The notes beneath the pieces are model-generated. The model searched no databases, was not told the DNA's origin, and saw only the letters and a program-made list of their open reading frames with translations. Shown here in pieces: positions 11,903-51,192 of a stretch of DNA of 51,192 nucleotides. Made by a program: the position numbers and the translations under genes. The DNA is from a virus (taxonomy: Duplodnaviria > Heunggongvirae > Uroviricota > Caudoviricetes). The stretch lies in IMG/VR virus record IMGVR_UViG_2627854098_000004; one strand, written 5' to 3'. Position 1 is the first letter of the stretch. Each line of letters starts with the position of its first letter.

Positions 11903-11907
11903 GGGAT

Positions 11908-12606
11908 TTACTGCGAAAGTTTGTTAATGGAAAGGAAGCCGCCAAAGTTGCCGACGTTATTGCGGAACTTACAACCGCTCAGGCATTTGCTGCATTTATC
12001 CTTCGTGATATCGGACGTTGGCTGGTCATATTCATCCGCGACAGCCGGACCGCTATAACCGCACTCGTCACCGCGATAGGTCCAGGTGCAGGTGTTGGCC
12101 AGCATGATACGTCCCGGAAAAACAGCGCCATCCGTTTCCGTCGGCGTGGACAGTACAAAGGAGGCACTCACCGCGCTCAGTTCGCTGCACTGCTCAATGC
12201 GCCAGCGGCTGATCACCTCCTGCTCCGGATCGGCGTCACTGTTTCCGTTGACGAAGTTCACCGCATCCAGAAAACGGGCGTAAACCTTACGCCGGACCAC
12301 CGTTCCGCCGACCAGACTCTGCAGATCTTCCGCCATCCCTGTGACCATACCGTACAGGTTAGAAACCGTCAGCGTGGGGCGCGTACTGGTGCCTTTGCCA
12401 TTCAGTTCAAAACCGCTCCCCTGAATGGGATACGGCTGATACTGTCGCCCCTGCCAGGTGACCGGCTCACCTTTTTCGTTCTGCTCATTACAGAAAAAAT
12501 AACGTTCTCCACCGACCTCTGTCAGGTCGATTTCCCAGAGCACCACGCTGGCCGACTGCTCCGCACGGGTGCATTCATTCAGTGTTTCCTGCCGGATATC
12601 CTGCAT
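11908..12606 (-). CDS. L: tail tip assembly protein L
   Basis: 232 aa; near-identical to lambda gpL; ATGA overlap with the M stop. Confidence 0.9.
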   Translation of the reverse strand: MQDIRQETLNECTRAEQSASVVLWEIDLTEVGGERYFFCNEQNEKGEPVTWQGRQYQPYPIQGSGFELNGKGTSTRPTLTVSNLYGMVTGMAEDLQSLVGGTVVRRKVYARFLDAVNFVNGNSDADPEQEVISRWRIEQCSELSAVSASFVLSTPTETDGAVFPGRIMLANTCTWTYRGDECGYSGPAVADEYDQPTSDITKDKCSKCLSGCKFRNNVGNFGGFLSINKLSQ

Positions 12607-12935
12607 CAGTTCACCACCTGTTCAAACTCTGCGCTGAACTCAACACGCAGCATACTGACCCGCGACGACCATTTTGCGCAGGTCACCTTTATCTGCCGCC
12701 ACTCATAAGGCGGCGTCCACAGAAAGGCTTTCCAGCCCCCGTGCTCTTCCAGAAACAACTCCAGTACCGTGGCCTCCTCACGGGGGACAGAAAGCGTCAC
12801 GCTGTACGTTTTCAGGTTGGCATTCAGCCCGGCAGGCGCTCGCTGGGAATAGCCATCACCAAAGCGCACCTTTCTTACAGAAGGGACCGAAGCCACATCC
12901 ATACCGGGTTTCACTTTCCAGCGGAAGGTCTTCAT
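12606..12935 (-). CDS. M: tail tip assembly protein M
   Basis: 109 aa; near-identical to lambda gpM. Confidence 0.9.
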   Translation of the reverse strand: MKTFRWKVKPGMDVASVPSVRKVRFGDGYSQRAPAGLNANLKTYSVTLSVPREEATVLELFLEEHGGWKAFLWTPPYEWRQIKVTCAKWSSRVSMLRVEFSAEFEQVVN

Positions 12936-26117: not shown

Positions 26118-26219
26118 TTTACGGATGCAATATTAAAAAAACAAAAAGTTATATTCGAGAAGTACCGTAACCGGCTCATTTAAACCGTCTGGTCTGTTTC
26201 CTCCGGCTCTACAAAAATA

Positions 26220-26897
26220 ATGTCCATCATTTTTAATGGACACTATCGTATGAAACACCGGACCTGGATCACTGAAGCTTTACGTCTTCACTTTGAAGAA
26301 CATTTACCCCGGGTTGTGGCCGGGCGTCGCCTGGGTGTACCAAAATCAACAGTTTGTAGTATGTTCGTGCGCTTTCGGAGAGCTGGCCTTTCGTGGCCTT
26401 TGCCCGCAGGCATGTCGGAGCAGGAACTTGATGCCTGCCTTTACGGACAATTTTCCACGGTACCAGTCGTACGTCCTGAAAGCACCGTTATATCCGAAGC
26501 CCCCGTGGTAAAAAAACGTCCCCGGCGGCCCAACTTCCCTTATGAGTTTAAAATCGCCTTAGTGGAGCAGTCACTGCAGCCCGGAGCCTGTGTGGCGCAG
26601 ATCGCCCGGGAAAACGGAATCAACGATAACCTGCTCTTCAACTGGCGCCATCAATACCGGAAAGGTGGCCTGCTGCCTTCCGGAAAAAATATGCCGGCAC
26701 TGCTTCCCGTGACGTTAACGCCGGAGCCGGATAATAAAATCCCGGCCCCCGCACAGGAACCAGAGCAGATAAATACACCGTCCGACAGTCTGTGTTGTGA
26801 GCTGGTTCTGCCGGCCGGAACTCTCAGGCTTAAAGGTAAACTGACGCCGGCGTTATTACAGACACTTATCCGCGAAATAAAAGGGAGCAGCCACTGA
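26220..26897 (+). CDS. IS66-family accessory protein TnpA (start uncertain)
   Basis: ORF has an IS66 orf1-like C-terminal part (PNFPYEFKIALVEQSL...LLFNWRHQYRKG); the N-terminal extension may not be translated. Confidence 0.6.
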   Translation: MSIIFNGHYRMKHRTWITEALRLHFEEHLPRVVAGRRLGVPKSTVCSMFVRFRRAGLSWPLPAGMSEQELDACLYGQFSTVPVVRPESTVISEAPVVKKRPRRPNFPYEFKIALVEQSLQPGACVAQIARENGINDNLLFNWRHQYRKGGLLPSGKNMPALLPVTLTPEPDNKIPAPAQEPEQINTPSDSLCCELVLPAGTLRLKGKLTPALLQTLIREIKGSSH

Positions 26898-27244
26898 TGA
26901 TATCTCTCCCTGCAGGTTCGCGTATCTGGCTGGTTGCAGGTATCACCGATATGCGAAATGGCTTTAACGGCCTGGCATCAAAAGTTCAGAACGTCCTGAA
27001 GGATGACCCGTTCTCCGGACACCTGTTCATCTTCCGCGGACGCCGGGGTGACCAGATAAAAGTGTTGTGGGCTGACAGTGACGGACTGTGCCTCTTCACC
27101 AAACGCCTGGAGCGGGGCCGCTTCGTCTGGCCAGTCACCCGTGACGGCAAGGTGCACCTTACTCCGGCTCAGTTATCCATGCTTCTTGAAGGTATCAACT
27201 GGAAGCACCCGAAACGAACGGAACGCGCTGGAATCCGCATATAA
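26897..27244 (+). CDS. IS66-family TnpB
   Basis: 115 aa; [27 protein letters not shown] signature. Confidence 0.85.
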   Translation: MISLPAGSRIWLVAGITDMRNGFNGLASKVQNVLKDDPFSGHLFIFRGRRGDQIKVLWADSDGLCLFTKRLERGRFVWPVTRDGKVHLTPAQLSMLLEGINWKHPKRTERAGIRI

Positions 27245-27263
27245 CCCGTTGTAAAGTGAGGAT

Positions 27264-28835
27264 ATGGACACCTCACTTGCTCATGAGAACGCCCGCCTGC
27301 GGGCACTGTTGCAGACGCAACAGGACACCATCCGCCAGATGGCTGAATACAACCGCCTGCTCTCACAGCGGGTGGCGGCTTATGCTTCCGAAATCAACCG
27401 GCTGAAGGCGCTGGTTGCGAAACTGCAACGTATGCAGTTCGGTAAAAGCTCAGAAAAACTTCGTGCAAAAACCGAACGGCAGATACAGGAAGCACAGGAG
27501 CGAATCAGCGCACTTCAGGAAGAAATGGCGGAAACGCTGGGTGAGCAATATGACCCGGTACTGCCATCCGCCCTGCGCCAGTCTTCAGCCCGTAAACCGT
27601 TACCGGCCTCACTTCCCCGTGAAACCCGGGTTATCCGGCCGGAAGAGGAATGCTGTCCTGCCTGTGGTGGTGAACTCAGTTCTCTGGGATGTGATGTGTC
27701 AGAGCAACTGGAGCTTATCAGCAGCGCCTTTAAGGTTATCGAAACACAACGTCCGAAACAGGCCTGTTGCCGGTGCGACCATATCGTGCAGGCACCAGTA
27801 CCTTCAAAACCCATTGCACGCAGTTATGCCGGAGCGGGGCTTCTGGCCCATGTTGTCACCGGGAAATATGCAGACCATCTGCCGTTATACCGCCAGTCAG
27901 AAATATACCGTCGTCAGGGAGTGGAGCTGAGCCGTGCCACACTGGGGCGCTGGACAGGTGCTGTTGCTGAACTGCTGGAGCCGCTGTATGACGTCCTGCG
28001 CCAGTATGTGCTGATGCCCGGTAAAGTCCATGCTGATGATATCCCCGTCCCGGTCCAGGAGCCGGGCAGCGGTAAAACCCGGACAGCCCGGCTGTGGGTC
28101 TACGTCCGTGATGACCGTAACGCCGGTTCACAGATGCCCCCGGCGGTCTGGTTCGCGTACAGTCCGGACCGGAAAGGTATCCATCCACAAAATCACCTGG
28201 CCGGTTACAGCGGTGTGCTTCAGGCCGATGCTTACGGTGGTTACCGGGCGTTATACGAATCCGGCAGAATAACGGAAGCCGCGTGTATGGCTCATGCCCG
28301 GAGAAAAATCCACGATGTGCATGCAAGAGCGCCCACCTACATCACCACGGAAGCCCTGCAGCGTATCGGTGAACTGTATGCCATCGAGGCAGAGGTCCGG
28401 GGCTGTTCAGCAGAACAGCGTCTGGCGGCAAGAAAAGCCAGAGCCGCGCCACTGATGCAGTCACTGTATGACTGGATACAGCAACAGATGAAAACACTGT
28501 CGCGTCACTCAGATACGGCAAAAGCGTTCGCATACCTGCTGAAACAGTGGGATGCACTGAACGTGTACTGCAGTAATGGCTGGGTGGAAATCGACAACAA
28601 CATCGCAGAGAACGCCTTACGGGGAGTGGCCGTAGGCCGGAAAAACTGGATGTTCGCGGGTTCCGACAGCGGTGGTGAACATGCGGCGGTGTTGTACTCG
28701 CTGATCGGCACATGCCGTCTGAACAATGTGGAGCCAGAAAAGTGGCTGCGTTACGTCATTGAACATATCCAGGACTGGCCGGCAAACCGGGTACGCGATC
28801 TGTTGCCCTGGAAAGTTGATCTGAGCTCTCAGTAA
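27264..28835 (+). CDS. IS66-family transposase TnpC
   Basis: 523 aa; zinc-ribbon CxxC...CxxC and IS66 transposase core. Confidence 0.85.
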
Positions 28836-28919
28836 ATATCAATACGGTTCTGACGAGTCGCTTACGAAGTACCGACACGATTTTCCCTGAAAAATTTTCA
28901 TAAATAGTGAAAAACCGCG

Positions 28920-28931
28920 AGGTCGCCGCCC
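28920..28931 (-). other. cosN cohesive-end site (lambda-type 12-nt sequence GGGCGGCGACCT on the - strand)
   Basis: The - strand reads GGGGCGGCGACCTCGCGGTTTTTCACTATTTATGAAAATTTT, closely matching the lambda cos region as I recall it; separated from Nu1 by the IS66 element. Confidence 0.75.
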
Positions 28932-30021: not shown

Positions 30022-30501
30022 TTTTATTCCTACGGGTCTTATTCTGACAATATATCCTGTGTTCCAGACTGCCACATCACCACATCCTGTGCCATTATCT
30101 GACTCACATTACATACATCGCATCGGGATACAGTAGTAGCACTTTCTGTAATACAGCTTCCTGTTTCTTCCACCATCGCACCGGGATAAACCCGCGAATC
30201 ATTAACGCGGTAAAAACCCGGTGTGCATCGTTTTTAATTATTCCCGCACACTCACGCAGAAGGAATTCCCCGTCGGGCTACGGTCATGGTTAATGCGGGA
30301 ATACGGCGACGATACAGCGCAGCTAAAAGGGTAATGGACGGATAGACCGGTTTATTTCATTCCACAGGATTCTGAGTGTCCCCAACTTCCTCCAATAGTC
30401 TGAGCCCACCTGTGTAGTTTTAATTTTCATCAATCCATTTAACTATCGTTTAATTGTTGTCACATAGGATTCTGCCGTTTTTAACAATGCAGGATAATAA
30501 G

Positions 30502-30795
30502 ATGAAAAAAATGTTGTTTTCTGCCGCTCTGGCAATGCTTATTACAGGATGTGCTCAACAGACGTTTACTGTTGGAAACAAACCTACAGCAGTAACACCA
30601 AAGGAAACCATCACCCATCATTTCTTCGTTTCGGGAATTGGGCAGAAGAAAACTGTCGATGCAGCAAAAATTTGTGGTGGTGCAGAAAATGTTGTTAAAA
30701 CAGAAACCCAGCAAACATTCGTAAATGGATTGCTCGGTTTTATTACTTTAGGCATTTATACTCCGCTGGAAGCGCGTGTGTATTGCTCACAATAA
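30502..30795 (+). CDS. bor: Bor lipoprotein (serum-resistance family)
   Basis: Start MKKMLFSAALAMLITGCAQQ; near-identical to lambda Bor; opposite strand to the lysis genes as in lambda. Confidence 0.9.
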   Translation: MKKMLFSAALAMLITGCAQQTFTVGNKPTAVTPKETITHHFFVSGIGQKKTVDAAKICGGAENVVKTETQQTFVNGLLGFITLGIYTPLEARVYCSQ

Positions 30796-30826
30796 TTGCA
30801 TGAGTTGCCCATCGATATGGGCAGCT

Positions 30827-31300
30827 CTATCTGCACTGCTCATTAATATACTTCTGGGTTCCTTCCAGTTGTTTTTGCATAGTGATCAGCCTCTCTCTGA
30901 GGGTGAAATAATCCCGTTCAGCGGTGTCTGCCAGTCGGGGGGAGGCTGCATTATCCACGCCGGAGGCGGTGGTGGCTTCACGCACTGACTGACAGACTGC
31001 TTTGATGTGCAACCGACGACGACCAGCGGCAACATCATCACGCAGAGCATCATTTTCAGCTTTCGCATCAGCTAACTCCTTCGTGTATTTTGCATCGAGC
31101 GCAGCAACATCACGCTGACGCATCTGTATGTCAGTAATTACCGCGTTCGCCAGCGTCAGTTCTCTGGCATTTTTGTCGCGCTGGGCTTTGTAGGTAATGG
31201 CGTTATCACGGTAATGATTAACAGCCCATGACAGGCAGACGATGATGCAGATAACCAGAGCGGAGATAATCGCGGTTACTCTGTTCATTGCTGACCCCAC
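30827..31300 (-). CDS. Rz: i-spanin Rz
   Basis: 157 aa; N-terminal transmembrane segment then coiled-coil region; last gene of the lysis cassette. Confidence 0.85.
30886..31068 (-). CDS. Rz1: o-spanin Rz1 (embedded in Rz, +1 frame)
   Basis: 60 aa; lipobox VVGC; proline-rich; lies entirely within Rz. Confidence 0.8.
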
Positions 31301-31782
31301 AAACAGATTTCACGCTCAATCTCACGACGAGTCATGAGACCTTTCCATTGCTTACCGCCAGCATATGTCCAGCGACGTAGCTGATCACATGCGCCTTTGA
31401 TATCGCCCTGGTTTATTTTGCGAAGAAGCGTCGATGTTCTGAAATTGCCAGCACCCACGTTGTAAACGAATGAGTAAAGAGCGCCGCGCATTGTTTCCGG
31501 TATATCGACTTTGATGTACGGGTTAATTTGTCTGGCGACCGTGGCAAGGTCTTTATTCAGGAGGGCTTTGCATTCTGCTTTGGTATACGTTTTACCGAGC
31601 ATGATGTCTTTTCCTGTATGCCCGTGACATACAGTCCATACACCAACAATATCTTTGTATGGTATGTAGCTGACACCTTCCAGACCATCGTTACCACTTG
31701 GGCCAGTGATTAACACTGATGCTATAGCAATTGCTCCGCCACCAATAGCAGCAGCAACGGCTTTTCGTAATGATGGAGGCAT
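31285..31782 (-). CDS. R: SAR endolysin (T4-lysozyme-type, phage-21 R-like)
   Basis: 165 aa; Gly/Ala-rich N-terminal signal-anchor-release segment; catalytic E-x8-D-x5-T ([16 protein letters not shown]). Confidence 0.85.
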
Positions 31783-31997
31783 TATTCACCTCTCGCAGCC
31801 TTGCGCTTATCTTCTTTAATCTTGAAATAAAGGTTTGTCAGGTACGTCAGCAGGCCAAATACCAGGCTACCCAGCACACCTATTGCCGCCCACTGTGAGG
31901 GCGTGACTTTATCGAGCAACTGTAAAAACCAGTACCCGGCACTACCTGCTGAGGTACCATAGGCGACACCCGTTGTTAACTTATCCATGGATTTCAT
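31782..31997 (-). CDS. S: class II holin (pinholin, S21-like) with dual-start motif MKSM
   Basis: 71 aa; two transmembrane segments; Met1 and Met4 give antiholin/holin starts; ATGA-type overlap with R. Confidence 0.85.
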
Positions 31998-32135
31998 AAC
32001 CCCACCTCGCAGACAAAGCGGGTGTAAATTAAGGGGATACTACGTATCGCAATAAAGGCAGAAACGTAACAGATTCGGAGTCAGTGAATAACTCAGGTAT
32101 TGGGTTATCAGCTAATATCGAGACTCAAAAAATGG

Positions 32136-32159
32136 AAAAACCCGCTCGACGGCGGGTTT
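32136..32159 (-). terminator. hairpin plus U-run about 140 nt upstream of S
   Basis: On the - strand AAACCCGC-CGTCGA-GCGGGTTT followed by TTCCATTTTTTGAG. Confidence 0.4.
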
Positions 32160-32585
32160 AAGCTGTGTGACGAAGTAACCACTCTTAACAGCATAACCAA
32201 TTTTTTACGTACGTAAACTACTAAATGATATTTGTGAGAATGCCACCGAGTGTTCAAAACACCACCACAAATGCATAAGAAAACTTCAACAAATAACCAG
32301 TTAATAATTTCCGATGTTATTTTTAGTTTGTTTAAATTAAGCTAAAGAATTATAGAGCACTTATAAATAAGTGCCATTAATATAAATTAGCTAATAGATT
32401 TATTTTTGTTCAGACAAGAGCCATGAATAGGATTAGATAGAAAAGGTTCAGATAAAAATAGAGATCTACTTCACAAATTAAATGAGAAACTAAAACTTAC
32501 ATCTTGAAATAATCACATTGATTAGATGAATATTTATCGCGCAGTGACATCATTTTTTAATAATAGTTCAAAAAAAGGGCGTACA

Positions 32586-33668
32586 ATGAAAAAATTAACA
32601 GTGGCAATTTCTGCTGTAGCTGCATCAGTACTGATGGCGATGTCTGCTCAGGCAGCTGAAATTTATAATAAAGACAGTAACAAGCTGGATCTATACGGGA
32701 AAGTTAATGCCAAGCACTACTTCTCCTCTAATGATGCAGATGATGGTGATACTACTTATGCCCGTCTTGGCTTCAAAGGTGAAACCCAAATCAACGATCA
32801 ACTGACTGGTTTCGGTCAGTGGGAATATGAATTCAAAGGCAACCGTGCTGAATCTCAAGGTTCTTCCAAAGACAAAACCCGTCTTGCATTTGCAGGCCTG
32901 AAATTTGGTGATTACGGCTCAATCGATTACGGCCGTAACTACGGTGTAGCATACGACATCGGTGCGTGGACTGACGTTCTGCCAGAATTCGGTGGTGATA
33001 CCTGGACCCAAACAGATGTGTTCATGACTGGTCGCACTACTGGTGTTGCAACTTATCGTAACAACGACTTCTTTGGTCTGGTCGATGGCCTGAACTTTGC
33101 TGCTCAGTATCAGGGTAAAAATGACCGCACTGACGTAACTGAAGCCAATGGTGATGGTTTCGGTTTCTCCACTACTTATGAGTATGAAGGATTCGGCGTG
33201 GGTGCAACCTATGCTAAATCAGATCGCACTGACGGTCAGGTCGCCTATGGTAAGAGCAAATTCAATGCCTCCGGCAAAAATGCGGAAGTATGGGCTGCAG
33301 GCCTGAAATATGATGCGAACAATATCTATCTGGCTACCACATATTCTGAAACTCAGAATATGACCGTTTTTGGTAATAACCATATTGCAAACAAAGCACA
33401 AAACTTTGAAGCAGTAGCACAATATCAGTTTGACTTCGGTCTGCGTCCATCTGTTGCTTACCTTCAGTCAAAAGGTAAAGACCTTGGTGTTCATGGTGAC
33501 CGAGACTTAGTCAAGTATGTCGATGTCGGTGCTACTTACTACTTTAATAAAAACATGTCCACTTTTGTTGATTACAAAATCAACTTAATTGACGATAGTA
33601 AGTTTACCAAAACAGCTGGTATTGATACCGACGACATCGTCGCTGTAGGTCTGGTTTATCAGTTCTAA
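32586..33668 (+). CDS. phage-borne general porin (OmpC/OmpF/NmpC-Lc family)
   Basis: ORF 32526..33668; start ATG 32586 with RBS AAGGG; signal peptide ...AMSAQA then AEIYNKD, C-terminal F; between Q and S on the opposite strand, as for nmpC in DLP12. Confidence 0.9.
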
Positions 33669-33685
33669 TCTGACTTACGAAAAAG

Positions 33686-33719
33686 ATATGTTGCGGGAGG
33701 CTTTGCCTCCGCAACATAT
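33686..33719. terminator. long hairpin between porin and Q; candidate tR' on the - strand
   Basis: ATATGTTGCGGGAGGC-TTT-GCCTCCGCAACATAT; a U-run (CTTTTTC) follows only on the - strand. Confidence 0.4.
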
Positions 33720-36586: not shown

Positions 36587-36877
36587 TCATCTTTTAACTC
36601 CATATACCGCCAATATCCGTTTCATCGTGGCACTCTGGCGACACTCCTTAAAAATCAGGTTCGTGCTCATCTTTCCTTCCCGTTCTTCCTTGGTAGCAAA
36701 CCGGTAATACACCGTTCGCCAGACCTTACCTTCGATAACCAGAAGACCTGCCCGTGCCATTTTAGCCGCGGCCTGATTTATGCTGGTTACTGTTGCGCCT
36801 GTTAGCGCGGCAACGTCCGGCGCACAGAAGCTATTATGCGTCCCCAGGTAATGAATAATTGCCTCTTTGCCCGTCAT
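36587..36877 (-). CDS. ren: Ren
   Basis: 96 aa; near-identical to lambda Ren. Confidence 0.85.
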   Translation of the reverse strand: MTGKEAIIHYLGTHNSFCAPDVAALTGATVTSINQAAAKMARAGLLVIEGKVWRTVYYRFATKEEREGKMSTNLIFKECRQSATMKRILAVYGVKR

Positions 36878-37575
36878 ACACTTGCTCCTTTCAGTCCTAA
36901 CTTAGCTTTAATTTCTGCGATCTTCGCCAGCGCCTGAACACGATTTAGAGGTCTGCCGCCCATGACAGGAAGTTGTTTTACTGGTTCAGGTATCGTCTCA
37001 CCACGGTTAATTCGCGCTGTCATACAGGTCAGTTCATCGGCAGCCTTGCGTCGTAATTCCGCGTCAGTCAGCGCATTGGCCCGCATGTTCTGGTACAGGT
37101 TGGTAACCAGCCAGTAGTGCGCGTTCGATTTCCACGGATAAGACTCTGCATCCGGATACAGGCCTCGCTTCCGGCAATACTCGTAAACCATATCAACCAG
37201 CTCGCTGACGTTTGGCAGTCCGGCGATAACGGATGCTTCTTCCCGGCACCATGCAACAAACTGCCCGGGTGATGGCAGAAATGGTCGATTCTGCCGACGG
37301 GCTACGCGCATTCCTGCGTTAACCTGTTCCATTGTGGTGATCCCGTTTTCCCGGAAAGCCAGAACCCACTGGCGGCGGATTTCGTTCAGTTCGTTCTGGT
37401 CACGGTTAGCCAGACTCGCCGGGAAAGTTGCCAGTAACTGGCTGAACACACCGTTGATGATCTGCGCTACCTGCTGTACCTGCGGCTTTTCGTCGTACTG
37501 TTCCGGCATGTTGTTGGCGATCCGACGCATCTGCTCACGGTCAAAATTAACCATCTGTGCGGCGATGTTTTTCAT
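36874..37575 (-). CDS. P: replication protein P (DnaB loader)
   Basis: 233 aa; near-identical to lambda P; ATGA overlap with the O stop. Confidence 0.9.
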   Translation of the reverse strand: MKNIAAQMVNFDREQMRRIANNMPEQYDEKPQVQQVAQIINGVFSQLLATFPASLANRDQNELNEIRRQWVLAFRENGITTMEQVNAGMRVARRQNRPFLPSPGQFVAWCREEASVIAGLPNVSELVDMVYEYCRKRGLYPDAESYPWKSNAHYWLVTNLYQNMRANALTDAELRRKAADELTCMTARINRGETIPEPVKQLPVMGGRPLNRVQALAKIAEIKAKLGLKGASV

Positions 37576-38470
37576 AAATCCACCCCGTAAATCCAGTCAG
37601 TGTTTGTCAGGTCGAGTTTTGGTTTGCAGGCTGTCACACCTGCCTGTTGCTTGTTACGGTTGATTTCGAGCTGGGTCCACTTGTCGCGGAGTTTGGCCGG
37701 GCTCAGCACGTTACCGGACCAGAAGTTGTCCTGGCATGCCCAGCGGAACAGTACACACATGTCGCGATGGTTACGTCCGTCACGTTCACGCATCAGGCGG
37801 ATATCGTTAGCCCACCCTGCAAAATTCGGTTTTCTGGCTGATGGCGCGATGGTCTTCACCATGTCAAACATCCATTCTGCGGCGGTCAGGTCTTCTGCTG
37901 TCCCCCACTTGCTGCCGCTCTGAATTGCAGCATCCGGTTTCACCACAGAAAGGTCGTTTTCTGGCTGGTCAGAGGATTCGCCAGAATTCTCTGACGAATA
38001 ATCTTTTCTTTTTCTTTTGTAATAGTGTCTTTTGTGTCCCCCTGTTTTGAGGGATAGCAATCCCCCAATTTGAGGGATGTTTTATCCCTCGTTTTAGGGG
38101 ATTTTCCCTCGTTTTGAGGGATACACCATTCTGAGATGTTTTTATTTGGTCCAAACATGCCGCCTTGCTGCTTGATAATATTCATTCTGACGAGTTCTAA
38201 CTTGGCTTCATTGCACCGTTTGACGGGTAACTTTGTAATCTCGCTAAGTTGAGAATCGGTGATTCTGTCCATTGGTTTATTCCATCCATAGGTTTTACGC
38301 AGAATGGCAAGCAGCACTTTAAACTGTCGCTTGGTCAGATCTGCGCCTGAATAAGCCTCAAGCAGCATATTTGATAGTCTGGCGTAACCATCATCGAGAT
38401 CTGCCACATTACGCTCCTGTTTGGCAAAGTTACCTCTGCAGAAGTTGAGTATTTTTGCTGTATTTGTCAT
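37572..38470 (-). pseudogene. O: replication initiator O, split by a 1-nt deletion in the AT-rich ori segment
   Basis: ORFs 37940..38470 (O N-terminus) and 37572..38060 (O C-terminus) overlap; total 899 nt against 900 expected; the frame change maps to the plus-strand T5 run 38009-38013. Confidence 0.75.
38041..38120. repeat. ori iterons (four roughly 19-bp O-binding repeats) inside the O gene
   Basis: On the - strand four tandem copies of TCCCTCAAAACGAGGGA-like repeats, followed by an A/T-rich segment at 37990-38040. Confidence 0.85.
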
Positions 38471-38940: not shown

Positions 38941-39156
38941 TTAAGCGGCTTTGTGTTCCGGCGGGAACACGTCATCAAGACTGACTTTTGCGCCTAACTT
39001 GTTTAGGCACGCAACAAGAGCACGGCATGTTTTAAGGTCTGGGAAGCGACGACCAGATTCCCAATGTCCGATAGCTCCCTGTGTGCATCCAACTGCCTTA
39101 GCAAGTGTTGTTTGAGAGATATTCAGTGACTCTCGATATTTTCGTAGGTTGCTCAT
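38941..39156 (-). CDS. cro: Cro-like repressor (XRE-family helix-turn-helix, 71 aa)
   Basis: ORF 38941..39327; start ATG 39156 with RBS GGAGGG; HTH LNISQTTLAKAVGCTQGAIGHWESG; divergent from cI across the operator region. Confidence 0.8.
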   Translation of the reverse strand: MSNLRKYRESLNISQTTLAKAVGCTQGAIGHWESGRRFPDLKTCRALVACLNKLGAKVSLDDVFPPEHKAA

Positions 39157-41798: not shown

Positions 41799-41835
41799 GT
41801 AAGCGTGCAGCAAGAACCGTATTGACGGGGATGTG

Positions 41836-43374
41836 TTATTCAGTCGGCAGTGCTACGCGCCAGGGGAGCAGTTCGCCGACCCGGTTTATCGGCCAGTCGG
41901 CTATGACGTCAAGGACATAGCGGAGGTAGCTTTCTGGCTCCACTCCGTTCAGTTTGCACGTCCCGATCAGGCTGTACAGCAGCGCTCCCCGCTCTCCTCC
42001 ATGATCCGAACCGAAGAACAGGTAGTTTTTGCGGCCCAGACTGACCATCCGCAACGCATTTTCAGCGATGTTATTGTCCGCCTCAGCCCAGCCATCATCT
42101 GCATAGTACGTCAGCGCCGGCCACTGGTTCAGGGCGTATGCGAACGCTTTCGCCAGTTCTGAGTGTCGCGACAGGGTTTTCATCTTTTCACGCAGCCAGC
42201 TTTCCAGGGATTTCAGCAGCGGTTTCGTTTTCAACTGACGTTCGGCAAGGCGCTGCTCCGCCGTCATTCCCCTTATCTCTGCCTCGATGGCGTACAGTTC
42301 GCCGATCCGTTTCAGCGCTTCCTCCGTCAGGGCTGACGGGGTGCGAACGTGCACATCGTGGATTTTACGGCGGGCGTGAGCCCAACAGGCGGCTTCCGTT
42401 ATCCGGCCATCCCGGTACAGCTCGTTGAACCCGGCGTATGCATCCGCCTGCAGTACACCACTGAACCCCGCAAGATGGGTCTGCGGATGGATGCCTTTTC
42501 TGTCCGGGCTGTAAGCGAACCACACCGCCGGCGCCAGCGTTGACCCGGCGTTACGGTCGTCACGAACGTAGGTCCATAACCGCCCGGTCTTCGTTTTCTT
42601 ATTGCCTGGCAACAGCACCGGGACAGGCGTGTCATCAGCATGGAGCTTACCGTCAGTCAGCACATAGCCATGAAGCGCCTCTTCCAGCGGAGACAGCAGC
42701 CGGCAGCATGCATCCACCCAGCCCGACAGCAGTGAACGGCTCAGCTCCACACCTTGCCGGCCGTATATTTCTGACTGGCGATACAGCGGGGTGTGCTCTG
42801 CATACTTCGAGGTCAGCACGCGGGCCAGCAGCCCCGGTCCGGCGATACCCCGCTCGATGGGCCGCGAAGGTGCAGGTGCCTGCACGATGGCATCGCACTG
42901 AGTACAGGCATGTTTTTCCCGTACCGTCCGGATAACCCGGAAGGCGCTACGCATCAACTCCAGCTGTTCGGCGGTATCCTCGCCCAGATAGCTCAGTGAA
43001 CCGCCGCAGTTCGGGCAGCACGGCGCCGCAGGCAACAGTCGCTTTTCGTCACGGGGTAGTGATTCAGGGAACGGCTTACGGGTGCGGGTCTGACGCAACG
43101 GACGCTGTACTGCCGGGTCATACACCCTACCAGTCAGCGTATCGCTCTCTTTCTGAAGCCGGTTCAGATCGGCTTCCATTTGTGCGATACGGCGGGAGAC
43201 TTTTTCGGAACGACTGCCGAAGTTCATCCGGCGGAGTTTATCCAGCTGCGCCTGCAGATGGTCTATTTCGCGCTCCCGGTTGCTCAGCTTTTCCTGCAGG
43301 GCGTGGATCAGCGCTTCCTGTTCGGCCAGGCGCTGTTTCAGCAGGAAGATGTCGTCAGAAGAGATGTCGTTCAT
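41836..43374 (-). CDS. IS66-family transposase TnpC
   Basis: 512 aa; IS66 transposase with zinc-ribbon CxxC motifs. Confidence 0.85.
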
Positions 43375-43423
43375 AAGCCCGTATTTTACCGGGCTTATTC
43401 TGTGACAACCAGGATAAAGAGAT

Positions 43424-43771
43424 TTACAGCATGGTCAGGGAGGTCAGCAGCCGCTTAGGCTGTCGCCAGTCGATACCTTCCAGCAGCATCGCCAGCTGCG
43501 CCTGTGTAAGGAACACTTTGCCATCACGGGCTGACGGCCAGGCGAAGCGCCCACGCTCCAGCCGTTTGGTCAGGAGGCACAGTCCGTCACCGGTGGACCA
43601 CAGCAGTTTAACCTGACTGCCGCTGCGGCCCCGGAAAATGAAAACATGGCCGGACATGGGATCGTCTTTCAGCGCCGTCTGTACTTTCGCAGCCAGGCCG
43701 TTGAAGCCATTTCTCATATCAGTGATACCGGCAACCAGCCAAATTTTGGTCCCGGAAGGTAACGGGATCAT
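43424..43771 (-). CDS. IS66-family TnpB
   Basis: 115 aa; [27 protein letters not shown]. Confidence 0.85.
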
Positions 43772-44169
43772 CGCTTCAGTTCCTGTATCAGCAGAGTCAG
43801 GAGCTTTTCGCTGACATTGCCATTGAAGCGGAGCGTCCCGTGCCGGAACGTTACCTCACAGCTGATACTGAGGGTTTCCGGGTCCTCTGCGAGCGATTCT
43901 GGCTGTTCGGCAGCTGCATCGAGAGTCACAGGAAGTAGCTGGGGGCTCTCTGAAGAAGGTAATAGCAGCTTTCCCTCGCGCCATTGTTGTCGCCATTTGA
44001 ACAACAGATTGGCGTTAATGCCATTTTCAAGAGCAAGTTTTGAGATGGATATCCCGGGTTCACAGGAGGCAGCAACGAGCTGCTGTTTAAATTCGGGAGG
44101 ATAATTAGGGCAGCCTTTTCGCCTGCCGGGAGTCACATTTTTCTGCATATCTGACACTTTGGTTCCCAC
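43768..44169 (-). CDS. IS66-family TnpA
   Basis: 133 aa; ATGA-type overlap with tnpB. Confidence 0.8.
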   Translation of the reverse strand: MGTKVSDMQKNVTPGRRKGCPNYPPEFKQQLVAASCEPGISISKLALENGINANLLFKWRQQWREGKLLLPSSESPQLLPVTLDAAAEQPESLAEDPETLSISCEVTFRHGTLRFNGNVSEKLLTLLIQELKR

Positions 44170-44240
44170 TACTTATTTGGTGGACACCACTTTGTCTAAT
44201 TCGTCAGATTCTGACCAGACGGTTCAGGCTGTACGCTTAC

Positions 44241-44432
44241 ATCAGCTCCGACAAGCTACACAGGCCAACCCCTTCACGAGTGGTCTTGCAATGCAAGCTC
44301 AAACCAGCAATGAGAGCAGAAGTGATAACTCTGACAACGTTGACCAGAAAATATGAAGGTTCAACTTGTCTTCCGAACGTAGCTCTTTACGCGGCAGGCT
44401 ACCGGAAATCAAAACAACTGACGGCGAGATGA
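44241..44432 (+). pseudogene. N: N antiterminator, 3' fragment
   Basis: In-frame continuation of the 41710 ORF once the IS and one target-duplication copy are removed; stop TGA at 44430-44432; reconstructed N is 90 aa. Confidence 0.5.
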
Positions 44433-44448
44433 TAAATTCATTTGCTAA

Positions 44449-45030
44449 TTACTTGTTTTTGCCATGCTTATCCTGAGCGATAAGTTCATCCATAAGGCTG
44501 TCTGCCTTCCCGGCAAACCTAATGTAGCACTCATGTCTATAGCTTTCAGGGATAACGAAACGGTCGGTATCAGGATATCCAACAGCAGGAGGCCTTCGAA
44601 CGAGGAGTCCTTTTTTGAGCAATGAAATTGATTCATGAGCGCCCTTTTCCGTTTGTAGCTGGTTATTAGCGGCTACAGCGAATGCCAAATACGCTCTTTC
44701 TCCAAGAGTTAACGAATCAAACAAATCTTGCACATATTTTTCTTCTTTAGATTTGCGCTTCTGAGCAGCGAATACCTCAATTCTTTCAGTCACAGCGTGA
44801 TAAGCGGAATTAACAACGCCGTTAAGCACATAGCTAACGCAAAACAACAGGATGTAATACATCCAGTAATGAGGAAGGATTTCTGGATTATGCAGGTTTA
44901 TCCATTCTTTTACGCTTACCGGCATAACAATAATCAATATGATCAGGATGATTAGCATATGAATCAACTGTTTAAGTGTCATTCCTTGCAGGAAAAAATG
45001 CATTAGTTCCTGCCACCATGAGTTGTTCAT
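44449..45030 (-). CDS. sieB: superinfection exclusion protein SieB-like membrane protein
   Basis: 193 aa; N-terminal hydrophobic segment LIHMLIILIILIIVMPV; located between N and ral as sieB is in lambda. Confidence 0.65.
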   Translation of the reverse strand: MNNSWWQELMHFFLQGMTLKQLIHMLIILIILIIVMPVSVKEWINLHNPEILPHYWMYYILLFCVSYVLNGVVNSAYHAVTERIEVFAAQKRKSKEEKYVQDLFDSLTLGERAYLAFAVAANNQLQTEKGAHESISLLKKGLLVRRPPAVGYPDTDRFVIPESYRHECYIRFAGKADSLMDELIAQDKHGKNK

Positions 45031-45243
45031 CGGCGTTTCTCTTTTGCTCTCTGTAGGGGTGAATAGAGTTTATCCGATTTCTCGTTGTAGGGGTACACGA
45101 GAACCACCGAGCCTGATGTGGTTAAAAGACAGGCACAATCTTTACTACCGCAATCCACTATTTAAGGTGATATATGGAAGAAGAATTTGAAGAGTTCGAA
45201 GAGCATCCTCAAGATGTGATGGAACAATACCAGGACTATCCGT

Positions 45244-45444
45244 ATGACTACGACTATTGATACAAATCAATGGTGTGGACAATTCAAACGATGCAATGGA
45301 TGCAAGCTGCAATCGGAATGCATGGTTAAGCCTGAAGAAATGTTTCCTGTAATGGAAGATGGGAAATATGTCGATAAATGGGCAATACGAACGACGGCAA
45401 TGATTGCCAGAGAACTTGGTAAACAGAACAACAAAGCTGCCTGA
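45244..45444 (+). CDS. ral: Ral restriction-alleviation protein
   Basis: 66 aa; near-identical to lambda Ral. Confidence 0.85.
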   Translation: MTTTIDTNQWCGQFKRCNGCKLQSECMVKPEEMFPVMEDGKYVDKWAIRTTAMIARELGKQNNKAA

Positions 45445-45580
45445 TAGTGGCCTTTATTTTTGGCATAAATAACAGAATAAACACTGCACTGTGTATTCAT
45501 TCCAACGAGTGAATACACGGAGCAATGTCGCTCGTAACTAAACAGGAGCCGACTTGTTCTGATTATTGGAAATCTTCTTT

Positions 45581-45606
45581 GCCCTCCAGTGTGAGGGCGA
45601 TTTTTT
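45581..45606 (+). terminator. intrinsic terminator between ral and ea10 (tL-type)
   Basis: GCCCTC-CAGTGT-GAGGGC followed by GATTTTTTAT. Confidence 0.55.
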
Positions 45607-45626
45607 ATCTATGAGGATATGAATAG

Positions 45627-45995
45627 ATGTCAAACATCAAAAAATACATCATTGATTACGACTGGAAAGCATCAATAGAAATTGAAATTGACCATGACGT
45701 AATGACAGAGGAAAAACTTCACCAGATTAATAATTTCTGGTCAGACTCTGAATACCGACTCAATAAACACGGCTCTGTATTAAATGCTGTATTAATCATG
45801 CTGGCGCAACATGCTCTGCTTATAGCAATTTCAAGCGACTTAAATGCATATGGTGTTGTGTGTGAGTTCGACTGGAATGATGGAAATGGTCAGGAAGGAT
45901 GGCCTCCAATGGATGGTAGTGAAGGAATAAGAATTACCGATATCGATACATCAGGAATATTTGATTCAGATGATATGACTATCAAGGCCGCCTGA
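45627..45995 (+). CDS. ea10: Ea10-like protein
   Basis: 122 aa; matches lambda Ea10 as I recall it. Confidence 0.7.
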   Translation: MSNIKKYIIDYDWKASIEIEIDHDVMTEEKLHQINNFWSDSEYRLNKHGSVLNAVLIMLAQHALLIAISSDLNAYGVVCEFDWNDGNGQEGWPPMDGSEGIRITDIDTSGIFDSDDMTIKAA

Positions 45996-46067
45996 GCGCG
46001 GCGTTACCGCATACCAATTACGCTTCACTCGAGGCGTTTTTCGTTATGTATAAATAAGGAGCACACC

Positions 46068-46232
46068 ATGCAATATGCCATTGCAGGGTGGCCTGTTGCT
46101 GGCTGCCCTTCCGAATCTTTACTTGAACGAATCACCCGTAAATTACGTGACGGATGGAAACGCCTTATCGACATACTTAATCAGCCAGGAGTCCCAAAAA
46201 ATGGATCAAACAATTATGGCTATCCAGACTAA
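46068..46232 (+). CDS. cIII: CIII (FtsH inhibitor, 54 aa)
   Basis: ATG 46068 with [64 protein letters not shown]; below the ORF-track cutoff. Confidence 0.85.
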   Translation: MQYAIAGWPVAGCPSESLLERITRKLRDGWKRLIDILNQPGVPKNGSNNYGYPD

Positions 46233-46344
46233 ATTCACTATCGCCACTTTTATTGGCGATGAAAAGATGTTTCGTGAGGCCGTCGACGCTTATAAAAAAT
46301 GGATATTAATACTGAAACTGAGATCAAGCAAAAGCATTCACTAA
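46201..46344 (+). CDS. kil: Kil (host cell-division inhibitor, 47 aa)
   Basis: ATG 46201 overlapping the end of c[25 protein letters not shown]...; lambda Kil-like. Confidence 0.65.
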
Positions 46345-46419
46345 CCCCCTTTCCTGTTTTCCTAATCAGCCTGGCATTTCGCGGGCGATATTTTCACAGC
46401 CATTTTCAGGAGTTCAGCC

Positions 46420-46716
46420 ATGAACGCTTATTACATTCAGGATCGTCTTGAGGCTCAGAGCTGGGCGCGTCACTACCAGCAGATCGCCCGTGAAGAGAAA
46501 GAGGCAGAACTGGCAGACGACATGGAAAAAGGCCTGCCCCAGCACCTGTTTGAATCGCTATGCATCGATCATTTACAACGCCACGGGGCCAGCAAAAAAG
46601 CCATTACCCGTGCGTTTGATGACGATGTTGAGTTTCAGGAGCGCATGGCAGAACACATCCGGTACATAGTTGAAACCATTGCTCACCATCAGGCTGATAT
46701 TGATTCAGAGGTATAA
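46420..46716 (+). CDS. gam: Gam (RecBCD inhibitor, short form; the long-form start at 46299 is out of frame)
   Basis: 98-aa ORF equal to lambda GamS; the upstream GamL start ATG 46299 runs into a stop; 418 nt from that ATG to the gam stop against 417 expected. Confidence 0.85.
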
Positions 46717-46721
46717 AACGG

Positions 46722-47507
46722 ATGAGTACAGCACTCGCAACGCTGGCAGGGAAGCTGGCTGAACGTGTCGGCATGGATTCTGTCGACCCACAGGAACTGA
46801 TCACCACTCTTCGCCAGACGGCATTTAAAGGTGATGCCAGCGATGCGCAGTTCATCGCATTGTTGATCGTCGCCAACCAGTACGGCCTTAATCCGTGGAC
46901 GAAAGAAATTTACGCCTTCCCTGATAAGCAGAACGGCATTGTTCCGGTGGTGGGCGTTGATGGCTGGTCCCGCATCATCAATGAAAACCAGCAGTTTGAT
47001 GGTATGGACTTTGAGCAGGACAATGAATCATGTACATGCCGGATTTACCGCAAAGACCGCAATCATCCGATCTGCGTTACCGAGTGGATGGATGAATGCC
47101 GCCGCGAACCATTCAAAACCCGCGAAGGCAGAGAAATCACGGGGCCGTGGCAGTCGCATCCCAAACGGATGTTACGGCATAAAGCCATGATTCAGTGTGC
47201 CCGTCTGGCCTTCGGATTTGCTGGTATCTATGACAAGGATGAAGCCGAGCGCATTGTCGAAAATACCGCATACACTGCAGAACGTCAGCCGGAACGCGAC
47301 ATCACTCCGGTTAACGATGAAACCATGCAGGAGATTAACACTCTGCTGATTGCCCTGGACAAAACATGGGATGACGACTTATTGCCGCTCTGTTCCCAGA
47401 TATTTCGCCGCGACATTCGCGCATCGTCAGAACTGACACAGGCCGAAGCAGTGAAAGCTCTTGGATTCCTGAAACAGAAAGCCACTGAGCAGAAGGTGGC
47501 AGCATGA
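46722..47507 (+). CDS. bet: Bet (Red-beta single-strand annealing protein)
   Basis: 261 aa; near-identical to lambda Bet. Confidence 0.9.
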
Positions 47508-48184
47508 CACCGGACATTATCCTGCAGCGTACCGGGATCGACGTGAGAGCTGTCGAACAGGGGGATGATGCATGGCACAAATTACGGCTCGGCGTCATCA
47601 CCGCTTCAGAAGTTCACAACGTGATAGCAAAGCCCCGCTCAGGAAAGAAGTGGCCTGACATGAAAATGTCCTACTTCCACACCCTGCTGGCTGAGGTTTG
47701 CACCGGTGTGGCTCCGGAAGTTAATGCTAAGGCGCTGGCGTGGGGAAAACAGTACGAGAACGACGCCAGAACCCTGTTTGAATTCACTTCCGGCGTGAAT
47801 GTTACTGAATCCCCGATCATCTATCGCGACGAAAGTATGCGCACCGCCTGCTCTCCCGATGGTTTATGCAGTGACGGCAATGGCCTTGAGCTGAAATGCC
47901 CGTTTACCTCCCGGGATTTCATGAAGTTCCGGCTCGGTGGTTTCGAGGCCATAAAGTCGGCTTACATGGCCCAGGTGCAGTACAGCATGTGGGTGACACG
48001 AAAAGATGCCTGGTACTTTGCCAACTATGACCCACGAATGAAGCGTGAAGGCCTGCATTATGTCGTGGTTGAGCGGGATGAAAAGTACATGGCGAGTTTT
48101 GACGAGATGGTGCCGGAGTTCATCGAAAAAATGGACGAAGCACTGGCTGAAATTGGTTTTGTATTTGGAGAGCAATGGCGATGA
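47504..48184 (+). CDS. exo: Exo (lambda exonuclease)
   Basis: 226 aa; near-identical to lambda Exo. Confidence 0.9.
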
Positions 48185-48363
48185 CCCATCCTCACGATAA
48201 TATCCGGGTAGGCGCGATCACTTTCGTCTACTCCGTTACAAAGCGAGGCTGGGTATTTCACGGTCTTTCTGTTATCCGAAATCCGCTGAAAGCCCAGCGG
48301 CTGGCTGAGGAGATAAATAATAAACGGGGGGCGGTATGCACAAAGCATCTCCTGTTGAGTTAA
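48175..48363 (+). CDS. lambda orf60a-like protein
   Basis: 62 aa; lies directly downstream of exo. Confidence 0.55.
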
Positions 48364-48527
48364 GAACGAGTATTGATTTGGCACATAGCCTTGCTCAAAT
48401 TGGAGTCAGGTTTGTGCCAATACCAGCAGAAACAGACGAAGAATTTCATACGTTAGCCACATCCCTTTCACAAAAGCTGGAAATGATGGTGGCGAAAGCA
48501 GAAGCAGATGAGAGAGACCAGGTATGA
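48336..48527 (+). CDS. lambda orf63-like protein
   Basis: 63 aa; lies between exo and xis. Confidence 0.55.
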   Translation: MHKASPVELRTSIDLAHSLAQIGVRFVPIPAETDEEFHTLATSLSQKLEMMVAKAEADERDQV

Positions 48528-48537
48528 CAACCACTGA

Positions 48538-48720
48538 ATGCATTTTTCTGGCAGCGGGCTTCATATTCTGTGTGCTTATGCTTGCCGACATGGGGCTTGT
48601 TCAGTGACACCTCAGCAAGAAAACGCCCTTCGCAGCATTGCCCGTCAGGCTAATTCTGAAATCAAAAAAGTCAGACAGCAGTTTCCAAAAACGTCAATGA
48701 CATTTGCCGTAGCGTACTGA
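48538..48720 (+). CDS. hypothetical protein (lambda orf61 region; possibly frameshifted)
   Basis: 60-aa ORF; a separate 27-codon ORF starting at 48524 (MTTTECIFLAAGFIFCVLMLADMGLVQ) lies in another frame just upstream. Confidence 0.3.
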   Translation: MHFSGSGLHILCAYACRHGACSVTPQQENALRSIARQANSEIKKVRQQFPKTSMTFAVAY

Positions 48721-48913
48721 AGAAGCACCGCGAAACGGTAACGCTGAAGGGATTCACACCGACTCATTTAAGCCTGGCAATCGGCATGTTAAACGGCGTC
48801 TTTAAGGAACGATGAACATGAAAAGCAAAATTATCAGGGAGCTACAGGCTCCTTTTTTATTGTTCGCATTCACCCTCAAGCGTATTAACCAACAGTTCAG
48901 GGATTAATGAAAG

Positions 48914-49135
48914 ATGGCAGACATCATTGATTCAGCATCAGAAATAGAAGAATTACAGCGCAACACAGCAATAAAAATGCGCCGCCTGAACTACCTGGCT
49001 GTATCTGCCACTCATTGTTGTGAGTGTGGCGATCCGATAGATGAACGAAGACGCCTGGCCGTTCAGGGTTGTCGGACTTGCGCCAGTTGCCAGCAAGATC
49101 TGGAGCTTATCCGCAAACAAAGGGGGATTAAGTGA
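48914..49135 (+). CDS. TraR/DksA-family C4 zinc-finger protein
   Basis: 73 aa with CCECGDPID...CRTCASC four-cysteine motif. Confidence 0.65.
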   Translation: MADIIDSASEIEELQRNTAIKMRRLNYLAVSATHCCECGDPIDERRRLAVQGCRTCASCQQDLELIRKQRGIK

Positions 49136-49461
49136 TGGCTAACCTGCAACTTGCTGTTAAAAGTGAATACTTCGATGCCATGATTCGCGGAGAGAAAACG
49201 GAAGAGTATCGCTTGTGTAATGACTACTGGAATAAGCGAATTATGTTCCGGGAATATGACCGCCTGATTATCACAAAGGGATATCCGAAGCGCGACGATT
49301 CCAGTCGCAGAATTGATGTTCCGTATGACGGATATGAAGTGAAGACAATCACACATCCGCACTTTGGCGATAAACCGGTAAAGGTGTTCGCTATAAAGGT
49401 GAATATCAGCACTGAATATCAATCCGCACAACACAAGGTCAAGAATGTTCAGAGTGATTGA
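49132..49461 (+). CDS. hypothetical early-left protein (109 aa)
   Basis: Start overlaps the upstream stop; no recognisable motif. Confidence 0.5.
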   Translation: MMANLQLAVKSEYFDAMIRGEKTEEYRLCNDYWNKRIMFREYDRLIITKGYPKRDDSSRRIDVPYDGYEVKTITHPHFGDKPVKVFAIKVNISTEYQSAQHKVKNVQSD

Positions 49462-49684
49462 CCCTAACACCTGGTACGTCGACCACCACGGCACTCCCTG
49501 CAAAATCCTGCGTTCTACCCACAACAAAGTTCACTACATCCGAAAAGGCAGAACATGTATCGCCAGCATGTTCCGCTTTAATCATGACTTTGAACCTGTG
49601 AATAAAGCTGATGCAGATCGGATAGCAGAAGAGATCGAAACGGCAGAACACATTAAGAAGTTACGTGACATGCGCAGGAAATAG
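49445..49684 (+). CDS. hypothetical early-left protein (79 aa)
   Basis: ORF in the early-left operon; no recognisable motif. Confidence 0.45.
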   Translation: MFRVIDPNTWYVDHHGTPCKILRSTHNKVHYIRKGRTCIASMFRFNHDFEPVNKADADRIAEEIETAEHIKKLRDMRRK

Positions 49685-49823
49685 AAAAATTGATAAATTC
49701 AATACTGCATTTCTCAGCATTAAATTTATCTCTATGACCAGTCAAGAGATGTACCTGCCATGAGCTTAATATCATGTCAGATATATCGGTCACAAACTCC
49801 CTCAGCAGCTAAGAGGAGGACAA

Positions 49824-50060
49824 ATGTCTCGACTAATCACTTTACAGGACTGGGCTAAAGAAGAATTTGGGGACTTAGCACCAAGTGAGCGAGTTCTGAA
49901 AAAATACGCGCAAGGGAAAATGATGGCCCCACCCGCTATAAAAGTTGGTCGCTACTGGATGATTGACCGAAATTCCCGTTTTGTAGGAACGCTTGCAGAA
50001 CCGCAACTCCCAATAAACGCAAACCCAAAACTCCAAAGGATAATCGCTGATGGCTGCTAG
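49824..50060 (+). CDS. xis: excisionase Xis
   Basis: 78 aa; RBS GGAGGA; overlaps the int start by 11 nt as in lambda. Confidence 0.8.
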   Translation: MSRLITLQDWAKEEFGDLAPSERVLKKYAQGKMMAPPAIKVGRYWMIDRNSRFVGTLAEPQLPINANPKLQRIIADGC

Positions 50061-51192
50061 ACCCCGATCTCACAAAATCTCTATACCCAATTTATATTGC
50101 AAATTAGATAAGCGAACCGGAAAGGTATATTGGCAATACAAACATCCACTATCCGGTCGTTTTCATAGCTTAGGAACTGATGAGAATGAAGCAAAACAAG
50201 TTGCTACTGAAGCAAATACCATTATTGCTGAACAACGTACCAGACAAATATTAAGCGTCAATGAGCGTCTGGAAAGAATGAAAGGCAGGCGCTCAGACAT
50301 TACGGTGACAGAATGGCTTGATAAATATATTTCTATCCAAGAGGACAGGCTGCAACATAATGAACTAAGACCCAACTCCTATCGGCAAAAAGGCAAACCC
50401 ATTCGTCTTTTCCGTGAGCATTGTGGAATGCAACACCTCAAGGATATTACCGCACTTGATATTGCCGAAATAATTGATGCTGTAAAGGCTGAAGGTCATA
50501 ACAGGATGGCGCAAGTCGTGAGAATGGTGTTGATCGACGTCTTCAAAGAAGCACAACACGCAGGACATGTTCCGCCAGGATTTAACCCAGCGCAGGCAAC
50601 AAAACAACCGCGAAATCGAGTAAACCGCCAAAGATTGTCACTGCCCGAATGGCAGGCAATATTTGACAGCGTAAGCAGACGGCAGCCCTATTTAAAATGC
50701 GGCATGCTACTTGCTCTTGTTACTGGACAACGTTTAGGCGATATCTGCAATTTGAAATTCTCTGATATATGGGACGACATGTTGCACATTACTCAGGAAA
50801 AAACCGGTTCAAAACTTGCTATTCCGCTTAACCTGAAATGCGATGCTCTGAATATTACCCTTCGTGAAGTTATATCTCAGTGCAGGGATGCTGTTGTTAG
50901 TAAATATCTGGTCCATTACCGTCACACTACCTCTCAAGCAAACAGAGGAGACCAGGTTTCTGCGAATACTCTGACAACGGCTTTTAAAAAGGCCCGGGAA
51001 AAATGTGGCATAAAATGGGAGCAAGGAACTGCGCCCACATTTCATGAGCAGCGATCTCTGTCAGAACGGTTATATCGGGAACAGGGTCTGGATACGCAAA
51101 AGTTGTTAGGCCATAAATCCAGAAAAATGACCGACCGATACAATGATGATCGTGGTAAAGACTGGATTATCGTAGATATCAAAACAGCATAG
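50050..51192 (+). CDS. int: lambda-family tyrosine integrase
   Basis: 380 aa; C-terminal catalytic region HEQRSLSERLY...LLGHKSRKMTDRYNDDRG parallels lambda Int HELRSLSARLY...LLGHKSDTMASQYRDDRG; ends at the window edge. Confidence 0.9.
   Translation: MAARPRSHKISIPNLYCKLDKRTGKVYWQYKHPLSGRFHSLGTDENEAKQVATEANTIIAEQRTRQILSVNERLERMKGRRSDITVTEWLDKYISIQEDRLQHNELRPNSYRQKGKPIRLFREHCGMQHLKDITALDIAEIIDAVKAEGHNRMAQVVRMVLIDVFKEAQHAGHVPPGFNPAQATKQPRNRVNRQRLSLPEWQAIFDSVSRRQPYLKCGMLLALVTGQRLGDICNLKFSDIWDDMLHITQEKTGSKLAIPLNLKCDALNITLREVISQCRDAVVSKYLVHYRHTTSQANRGDQVSANTLTTAFKKAREKCGIKWEQGTAPTFHEQRSLSERLYREQGLDTQKLLGHKSRKMTDRYNDDRGKDWIIVDIKTA

Follow-up and report, generated by a model that had tools for sequence, protein, structure and literature searches.

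In bacteriophage lambda, the C-terminal half of the replication protein O is the part that interacts with protein P. A 39-bp High-AT-rich region of the lambda origin has been described, sequenced lambda O amber mutants include Oam317 (160 aa) and Oam8 (205 aa), and the ori96 mutation removes 15 bp at positions 39139-39153 of lambda (PMC6022878). The replication module considered here closely resembles that of lambda, and lies in a window (the whole stretch of DNA that was analysed, 51,192 nucleotides, to whose positions the coordinates below refer unless another sequence is named) that is 100% identical, in reverse orientation, to positions 4102897-4154088 of the genome of E. coli APEC IMT5155 (NZ_CP005930.1). 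The window represents a lambdoid prophage inserted beside icd, with iss and an ompC-like porin gene among its cargo. UTI89, APEC O1 and UM146 harbour related forms of it.

Gene O of this prophage, which encodes a lambda-type replication initiator, is located on the minus strand at 37572-38470 and shows 97.8% identity to lambda O and 99.9% identity to the O gene of UTI89. Four 18-nt iterons, the sites in the origin to which O binds, lie within the gene at 38039-38123 with a spacing of 20-24 nt and are identical to those of lambda, whose iteron annotation maps onto 38038-38122; the preliminary description of this DNA had placed them at 38041-38120, which is right to within 2-3 nt. Next to the iterons is a segment of high A/T content at 37990-38038 (about 27.5% GC, as measured at about 37990-38039), and on the opposite side of this segment from the iterons a repeat search located an inverted repeat (GTCAGAGGATTC / GAATTCTCTGAC) at 37968-37995. 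Replication gene P (36874-37575, minus strand) is intact, encodes a helicase loader of 233 aa that matches PF06992, and is found directly downstream of O, its start overlapping the O stop. With a Phage_rep_O (PF04492) domain, four iterons and an A/T-rich segment inside O, and P downstream, this module is of the ordinary lambda O/P type, its origin lying inside O, and nothing in the module itself is new.

As deposited, however, the O gene is 899 nt long and is split into two overlapping ORFs, whereas it is 900 nt long in its relatives, including each of the many ExPEC prophages whose O matches this interval at 99.9% identity. The annotation of the source genome (PGAP) labels the interval 'replication protein, frameshifted'. 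The upstream ORF (37940-38470, minus strand) encodes 176 aa beginning MTNTAKILNF, of which the last 24 residues are out of frame, and contains the complete Phage_rep_O origin-binding domain at residues 22-115 (Pfam, E = 8e-37). The downstream ORF (37572-38060, minus strand) encodes 162 aa and, from about 38008 downward, supplies the authentic C-terminal half of O (RKDYSSENSG...DWIYGVDL); this ORF had no match in Pfam, and among solved structures compared by sequence none matched O. The two ORFs overlap by 120 nt at 37940-38060. Both this overlap and the one-nucleotide deficit had been noticed earlier from the sequence and are borne out by the ORF list, and the location proposed for the frame change holds as well. 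Alignment with lambda and UTI89, pairwise differences and a direct run count all point to a homopolymer at 38009-38013 within the A/T-rich segment, which has five T on the plus strand and hence five A in the sense of O (A5), where lambda, UTI89, APEC O1 and the two genomes DE17 and VTB96815v discussed below have six bases (A6). The length of this run is the single difference that causes the shift of frame; its counterpart in lambda is 39143-39148, as we mapped it from the lambda annotation. The difference in run length is a discrete sequence fact, for which chance is not at issue.

For IMT5155, the genome paper describes only 454 GS Junior/Titanium data, from shotgun and paired-end runs at about 23x, with Sanger sequencing confined to gaps (PMC4232414). 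A comparison paper on BEN2908 gives no information about the quality of the IMT5155 assembly. The assembly comes from a flow-based platform and received no polishing by another chemistry (PMC4232414). Because the assembly is 454-only, because O is intact in the sister genomes, and because the other private differences of IMT5155 outside one segment of tail genes are all homopolymer changes of plus or minus one base without substitutions, we consider it very likely that the O frameshift is a 454 homopolymer miscall in the deposited IMT5155 assembly. An A6 run would have been undercalled by one base in pyrosequencing and the error carried into the ~23x consensus, and the real O would most likely be an intact gene of 299 codons, identical to that of the sisters. 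For the same reasons, it is most likely incorrect to regard the prophage as O-null, as had been suggested earlier. An alternative, which we regard as unlikely, is a real replication-slippage deletion that is private to IMT5155 and arose independently in UM146 and others, leaving the prophage O-null. Under this alternative, transcription from pR would yield a 176-aa fragment that has the iteron-binding domain and no C-terminal half, and the replication complex would not be assembled; by analogy with Oam317 and Oam8 in lambda genetics, the O allele would be null.

The evidence that bears most directly on these two readings comes from comparison with sister genomes. Both junctions of the IS insertions described below were found in only 3 of 5426 genomes, namely IMT5155, DE17 and VTB96815v, and since these rare junctions are common to them, DE17 and VTB96815v are the closest sequenced relatives of IMT5155. 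Both have an intact 900-nt O gene, with the uninterrupted frame of 299 codons that is absent from the deposited sequence, and its product is WP_000185431.1, the same protein as in UTI89. Across the whole window, DE17 and VTB96815v agree with each other wherever IMT5155 departs from them. Over the ~46 kb that exclude 11137-15351, the window differs from both sisters by 0 substitutions and 3 indels, all of plus or minus one base in runs of 6-8 bases. One is in J at 8274-8279, where T6 replaces the T5 of both sisters and 'frameshifts' J only in IMT5155; the second is in the intergenic region upstream of nu1 at 26135-26141, where IMT5155 has A7 and the sisters, APEC O1 and UM146 have A8; the third is the T5 in place of T6 in O. 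The intergenic run is A9 in UTI89. A genuine pseudogene would be expected to resemble the lesions N::IS66 and cos::ISCro1, which the sisters share; the O lesion, in contrast, is not inherited by them.

The same pattern extends to the chromosome. In the adjacent 50 kb from yceF to icd (NZ_CP005930.1 4052897-4102896, outside the window), which served as a core-chromosome calibration segment, no substitution distinguishes IMT5155 from DE17, and the only differences are 2 homopolymer indels of 1 nt, which 'frameshift' fabH, a central fatty-acid synthesis gene (run at 4055918-4055924 of the record), and ymfA (about 4087788) in IMT5155 but not in DE17. In total, 5 homopolymer indels and 0 substitutions separate IMT5155 from DE17 in about 96 kb, made up of the prophage outside the paralogue-derived tail segment and the 50 kb of chromosome. 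Five homopolymer indels without substitutions, one of them in fabH, are the signature of flow-based base-calling error and not of evolution. Since the window and flank hold about 116 runs of at least 6 bases, these five indels correspond to a per-run error frequency of a few percent, which is enough for O to have been hit. A real deletion, on the other hand, has to contend with A6 in both sisters and with the 0 substitutions over the ~96 kb compared with DE17, which leave hardly any time in which one particular 6-nt run could truly have mutated, and with the other private differences of IMT5155, which are of the same kind and, in hitting fabH, are difficult to regard as genuine. An origin of the frameshifts that are confined to IMT5155 (in four genes, tape measure, K, J and O) in pervasive decay of the prophage was likewise rejected, because the signature extends to the chromosome and to fabH.

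The segment set aside above, 11137-15351, covers the tape-measure, M, L and K genes and differs from the sisters by 99 substitutions and 8 indels. This cluster of SNPs could be taken as divergence from the sisters, but it is explained otherwise by a match at 99.8% to a second lambdoid prophage of VTB96815v (2984617-2988912). When 11100-15400 is compared with this second prophage, four substitutions and five single-base insertions private to IMT5155 remain, and the five insertions 'frameshift' the tape-measure and K genes. The segment could result either from collapse of paralogous prophages or a gap-closure error in the 454 assembly, or from a real gene conversion overlaid with errors.

The distribution of the A5 allele bears on both readings. 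With a query of 96 nt centred on the run, an exact match to A5 was found in 3 of the 1347 complete E. coli genomes that carry the stretch (about 0.2%): IMT5155, UM146 and FELIX_MS516. The last of these is a lambda lysogen with frameshifts in more than 20 genes over 30 kb and a second homopolymer deletion inside iteron 2, and is plainly an error-prone assembly. UM146, probably a 454 genome, has the prophage without either IS insertion, and its O region aligns to the window without gaps and with a single substitution. Comparison of its 50-kb core flank with that of DE17 gives 14 substitutions, 8 indels and 4 Ns; 5 of the indels are homopolymer undercalls, which frameshift pepT, ymfA and ycfT. 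The T6 allele of ymfA is present in only 2 of 3371 genomes, which are again IMT5155 and UM146. Inheritance of A5 by IMT5155 and UM146 from a common ancestor was rejected, because UM146 lacks the IS insertions and is 14 SNPs per 50 kb away from DE17; it is also contradicted by the A6 of DE17 and VTB96815v, the two genomes that have these insertions in common with IMT5155, and by the 0 SNPs between the DE17 and IMT5155 flanks. UM146 is clearly further from IMT5155 than are these two genomes, neither of which has the A5 run or the T6 of ymfA. The oddities in O and ymfA that IMT5155 and UM146 share therefore point to recurrent miscalls at the same sites, and the coincidence fits context-dependent miscalling. 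A real deletion is further disfavoured by the fact that UM146, the only other otherwise well-assembled complete genome with the allele, shares the ymfA oddity and has undercalls of its own.

There are also observations that speak for a real deletion. Slippage occurs naturally at homopolymers, the prophage is already inactivated by its IS insertions in N and close to cos, so that O is presumably unselected, and truncations at 160 and 205 aa correspond to classic lambda O ambers (PMC6022878). In addition, A5 occurs on several backgrounds in public contigs, some of which have no other nearby indels. In a large protein collection, the exact 176-aa product is found on 35 contigs, compared with at least 1000 for the intact protein, and in the ten encoding contigs that were inspected, A5 is associated with at least four backgrounds. 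Additional homopolymer deletions less than 2 kb away make four of these contigs look error-prone, and UM146 is a fifth; in the other five (ERR12659578, SRR26800025, ERR10498030 and ERR8007793, which are Logan/SRA contigs, and DEC5C), no second indel occurs within 4.5 kb, and these five represent at least three backgrounds, with two of them sharing a substitution. Genuine A5 alleles may exist in nature, and the A6 run is a plausible slippage site, which leaves the evidence specific to IMT5155 unchanged. One could go further and propose that the A6 run in the A/T-rich unwinding segment may be a natural hotspot at which slippage turns O off time and again, perhaps reversibly, in resident lambdoid prophages, with some A5 alleles being real and that of IMT5155 possibly among them; we consider this quite improbable. 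If it were true, derepression of such a lysogen would yield no more of O than its N-terminal, iteron-binding fragment.

It is very hard to credit a situation in which A5 is real but compensated, by -1 ribosomal slippage involving tRNA-Lys or by transcriptional slippage, as a form of recoding or a phase-variable replication switch. A -1 change of frame at any point where the two ORFs overlap (120 nt) would restore the authentic C-terminal frame, and GAA AAA G would, judging from the sequence, permit a single-tRNA slip of AAA onto AAA. However, the zero frame reads ACA AAA GAA AAA GAA AAG, with no canonical X XXY YYZ heptamer, the two-frame form is limited to the same 3 of 1347 complete genomes, all of them error-prone assemblies, and all well-assembled relatives encode O in one frame. 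A run of five A is too short for efficient transcriptional slippage. Programmed -1 frameshifting was rejected, since the slippery heptamer and conservation are both absent.

While a homopolymer miscall is the reading we prefer for O, the same does not apply to gam, which the preliminary description had said to show the same kind of one-nucleotide change. A 1-nt difference from lambda does exist there: the plus strand has T4 at 46403-46406, upstream of the start of the 98-aa Gam, where lambda has T3, and this T4 closes the frame between an upstream ATG (46299) and the 98-aa Gam ORF (46420-46716). The phenomenon is not that seen in O, as the change is also present in UTI89, APEC O1, DE17 and VTB96815v. 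DE17 and VTB96815v match the interval 44241-51192 without any difference, UTI89 and APEC O1 each depart from it by one substitution, and PGAP annotates the same intact 98-aa Gam in IMT5155 and in all four of these genomes. The gam T4 is therefore a fixed lineage difference from lambda that is unrelated to the run in O.

Two IS insertions bear on what the state of O could mean for the prophage. An IS66-family element (tnpA/tnpB/tnpC) at 41799-44240 splits the antiterminator gene N and is flanked by an 8-bp target duplication (ATCAGCTC). A second element, ISCro1 (also of the IS66 family), is located at 26168-28865 between cosN and the small-terminase gene, with an 8-bp target duplication of its own (GAAGTACC). 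A sequence search located the cohesive-end sequence of cosN (GGGCGGCGACCT) at 28920-28931 on the minus strand, and ISCro1 is inserted about 50 nt beyond it, with nu1 (start 26037, minus strand) following about 130 nt downstream of the element. Both insertions are real, since they are common to the sisters DE17 and VTB96815v, and the one in N defines the lineage. ISCro1 separates cosN from the terminase-binding side and, by analogy with lambda, probably abolishes packaging. More generally, what is known of lambda biology suggests that the insertions at N and cos should block antitermination and packaging, which would make the prophage defective for lytic growth whatever the state of O. With N split and cosN separated from nu1, the competence of O after induction is moot.

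Several further features were observed in and around the prophage. Its cargo at about 30500-33700, between Q and the lysis/cos region, comprises the ompC-like porin gene, iss, which is annotated as 'increased serum survival lipoprotein', and a TonB-family gene. At the far end of the prophage, UTI89, APEC O1 and UM146 have sitABCD, and the IMT5155 lineage has a different tail-fibre/lom end. Past window position 1, immediately flanking the end of the prophage (NZ_CP005930.1 about 4155049 onward), is a gene for a SMODS-domain nucleotidyltransferase that, judging from the domain name, may be a CBASS-type defence gene. A ZapA-like gene at about 48604-48815 is 'frameshifted' in IMT5155, UM146, UTI89, APEC O1, DE17 and VTB96815v alike; this is an old shared pseudogene or a mismatch of the annotation model, and not an assembly error.

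The apparent frameshift in O is very probably ordinary and tells us little about phage biology. A real frameshift would add a further lesion to a prophage that two IS elements have already disabled, a case of routine prophage decay. The more practical consequence concerns the deposited genome, which has roughly one homopolymer miscall per 20 kb. The 'frameshifted' O, J, fabH and ymfA of IMT5155 should be given no biological reading without resequencing, and the same caution applies to UM146. Sister genomes that share rare IS junctions offer a quick control for frameshift calls of this kind.

The closest described counterpart of this locus is the O/ori region of lambda. The two are alike in nucleotide sequence over the whole gene (97.8% identity), in their identical iterons, in an A/T-rich segment that is identical except for the length of the run, in the Phage_rep_O domain, and in the position of P immediately downstream with overlapping stop and start. 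They differ in the A6 run, which is one base longer in lambda than in the deposited window, and the prophages that carry them differ in that the one studied here has an immunity region (cI/cro) other than that of lambda, has icd as its integration site, and includes iss and an ompC-like porin gene. With respect to lambda mutants, the run falls within the 15 bp deleted in ori96 (39139-39153), and the stop after 176 residues lies between those of Oam317 (160 aa) and Oam8 (205 aa). In contrast, ori95 and ori96 are in-frame deletions in the A/T region whose O still complements in trans, whereas the loss of 1 nt, if genuine, would shift the frame; moreover, the lambda ori- and O- mutants were experimentally selected. 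Among defective lambdoid prophages of E. coli, the window prophage resembles others disrupted by IS elements, with IS66-family lesions that have 8-bp duplications and are shared by sister strains, while Rac, DLP12 and Qin are heavily deleted remnants and the prophage studied here, by contrast, keeps most of its genome. Finally, the O run itself has the features of known homopolymer miscalls in 454 (and early nanopore) assemblies: a change of plus or minus one base in a run of at least 6, in a 454-only assembly with spurious frameshifts that include fabH, and with identical sites miscalled in another error-prone assembly. From such miscalls, the O run shows no difference in kind.
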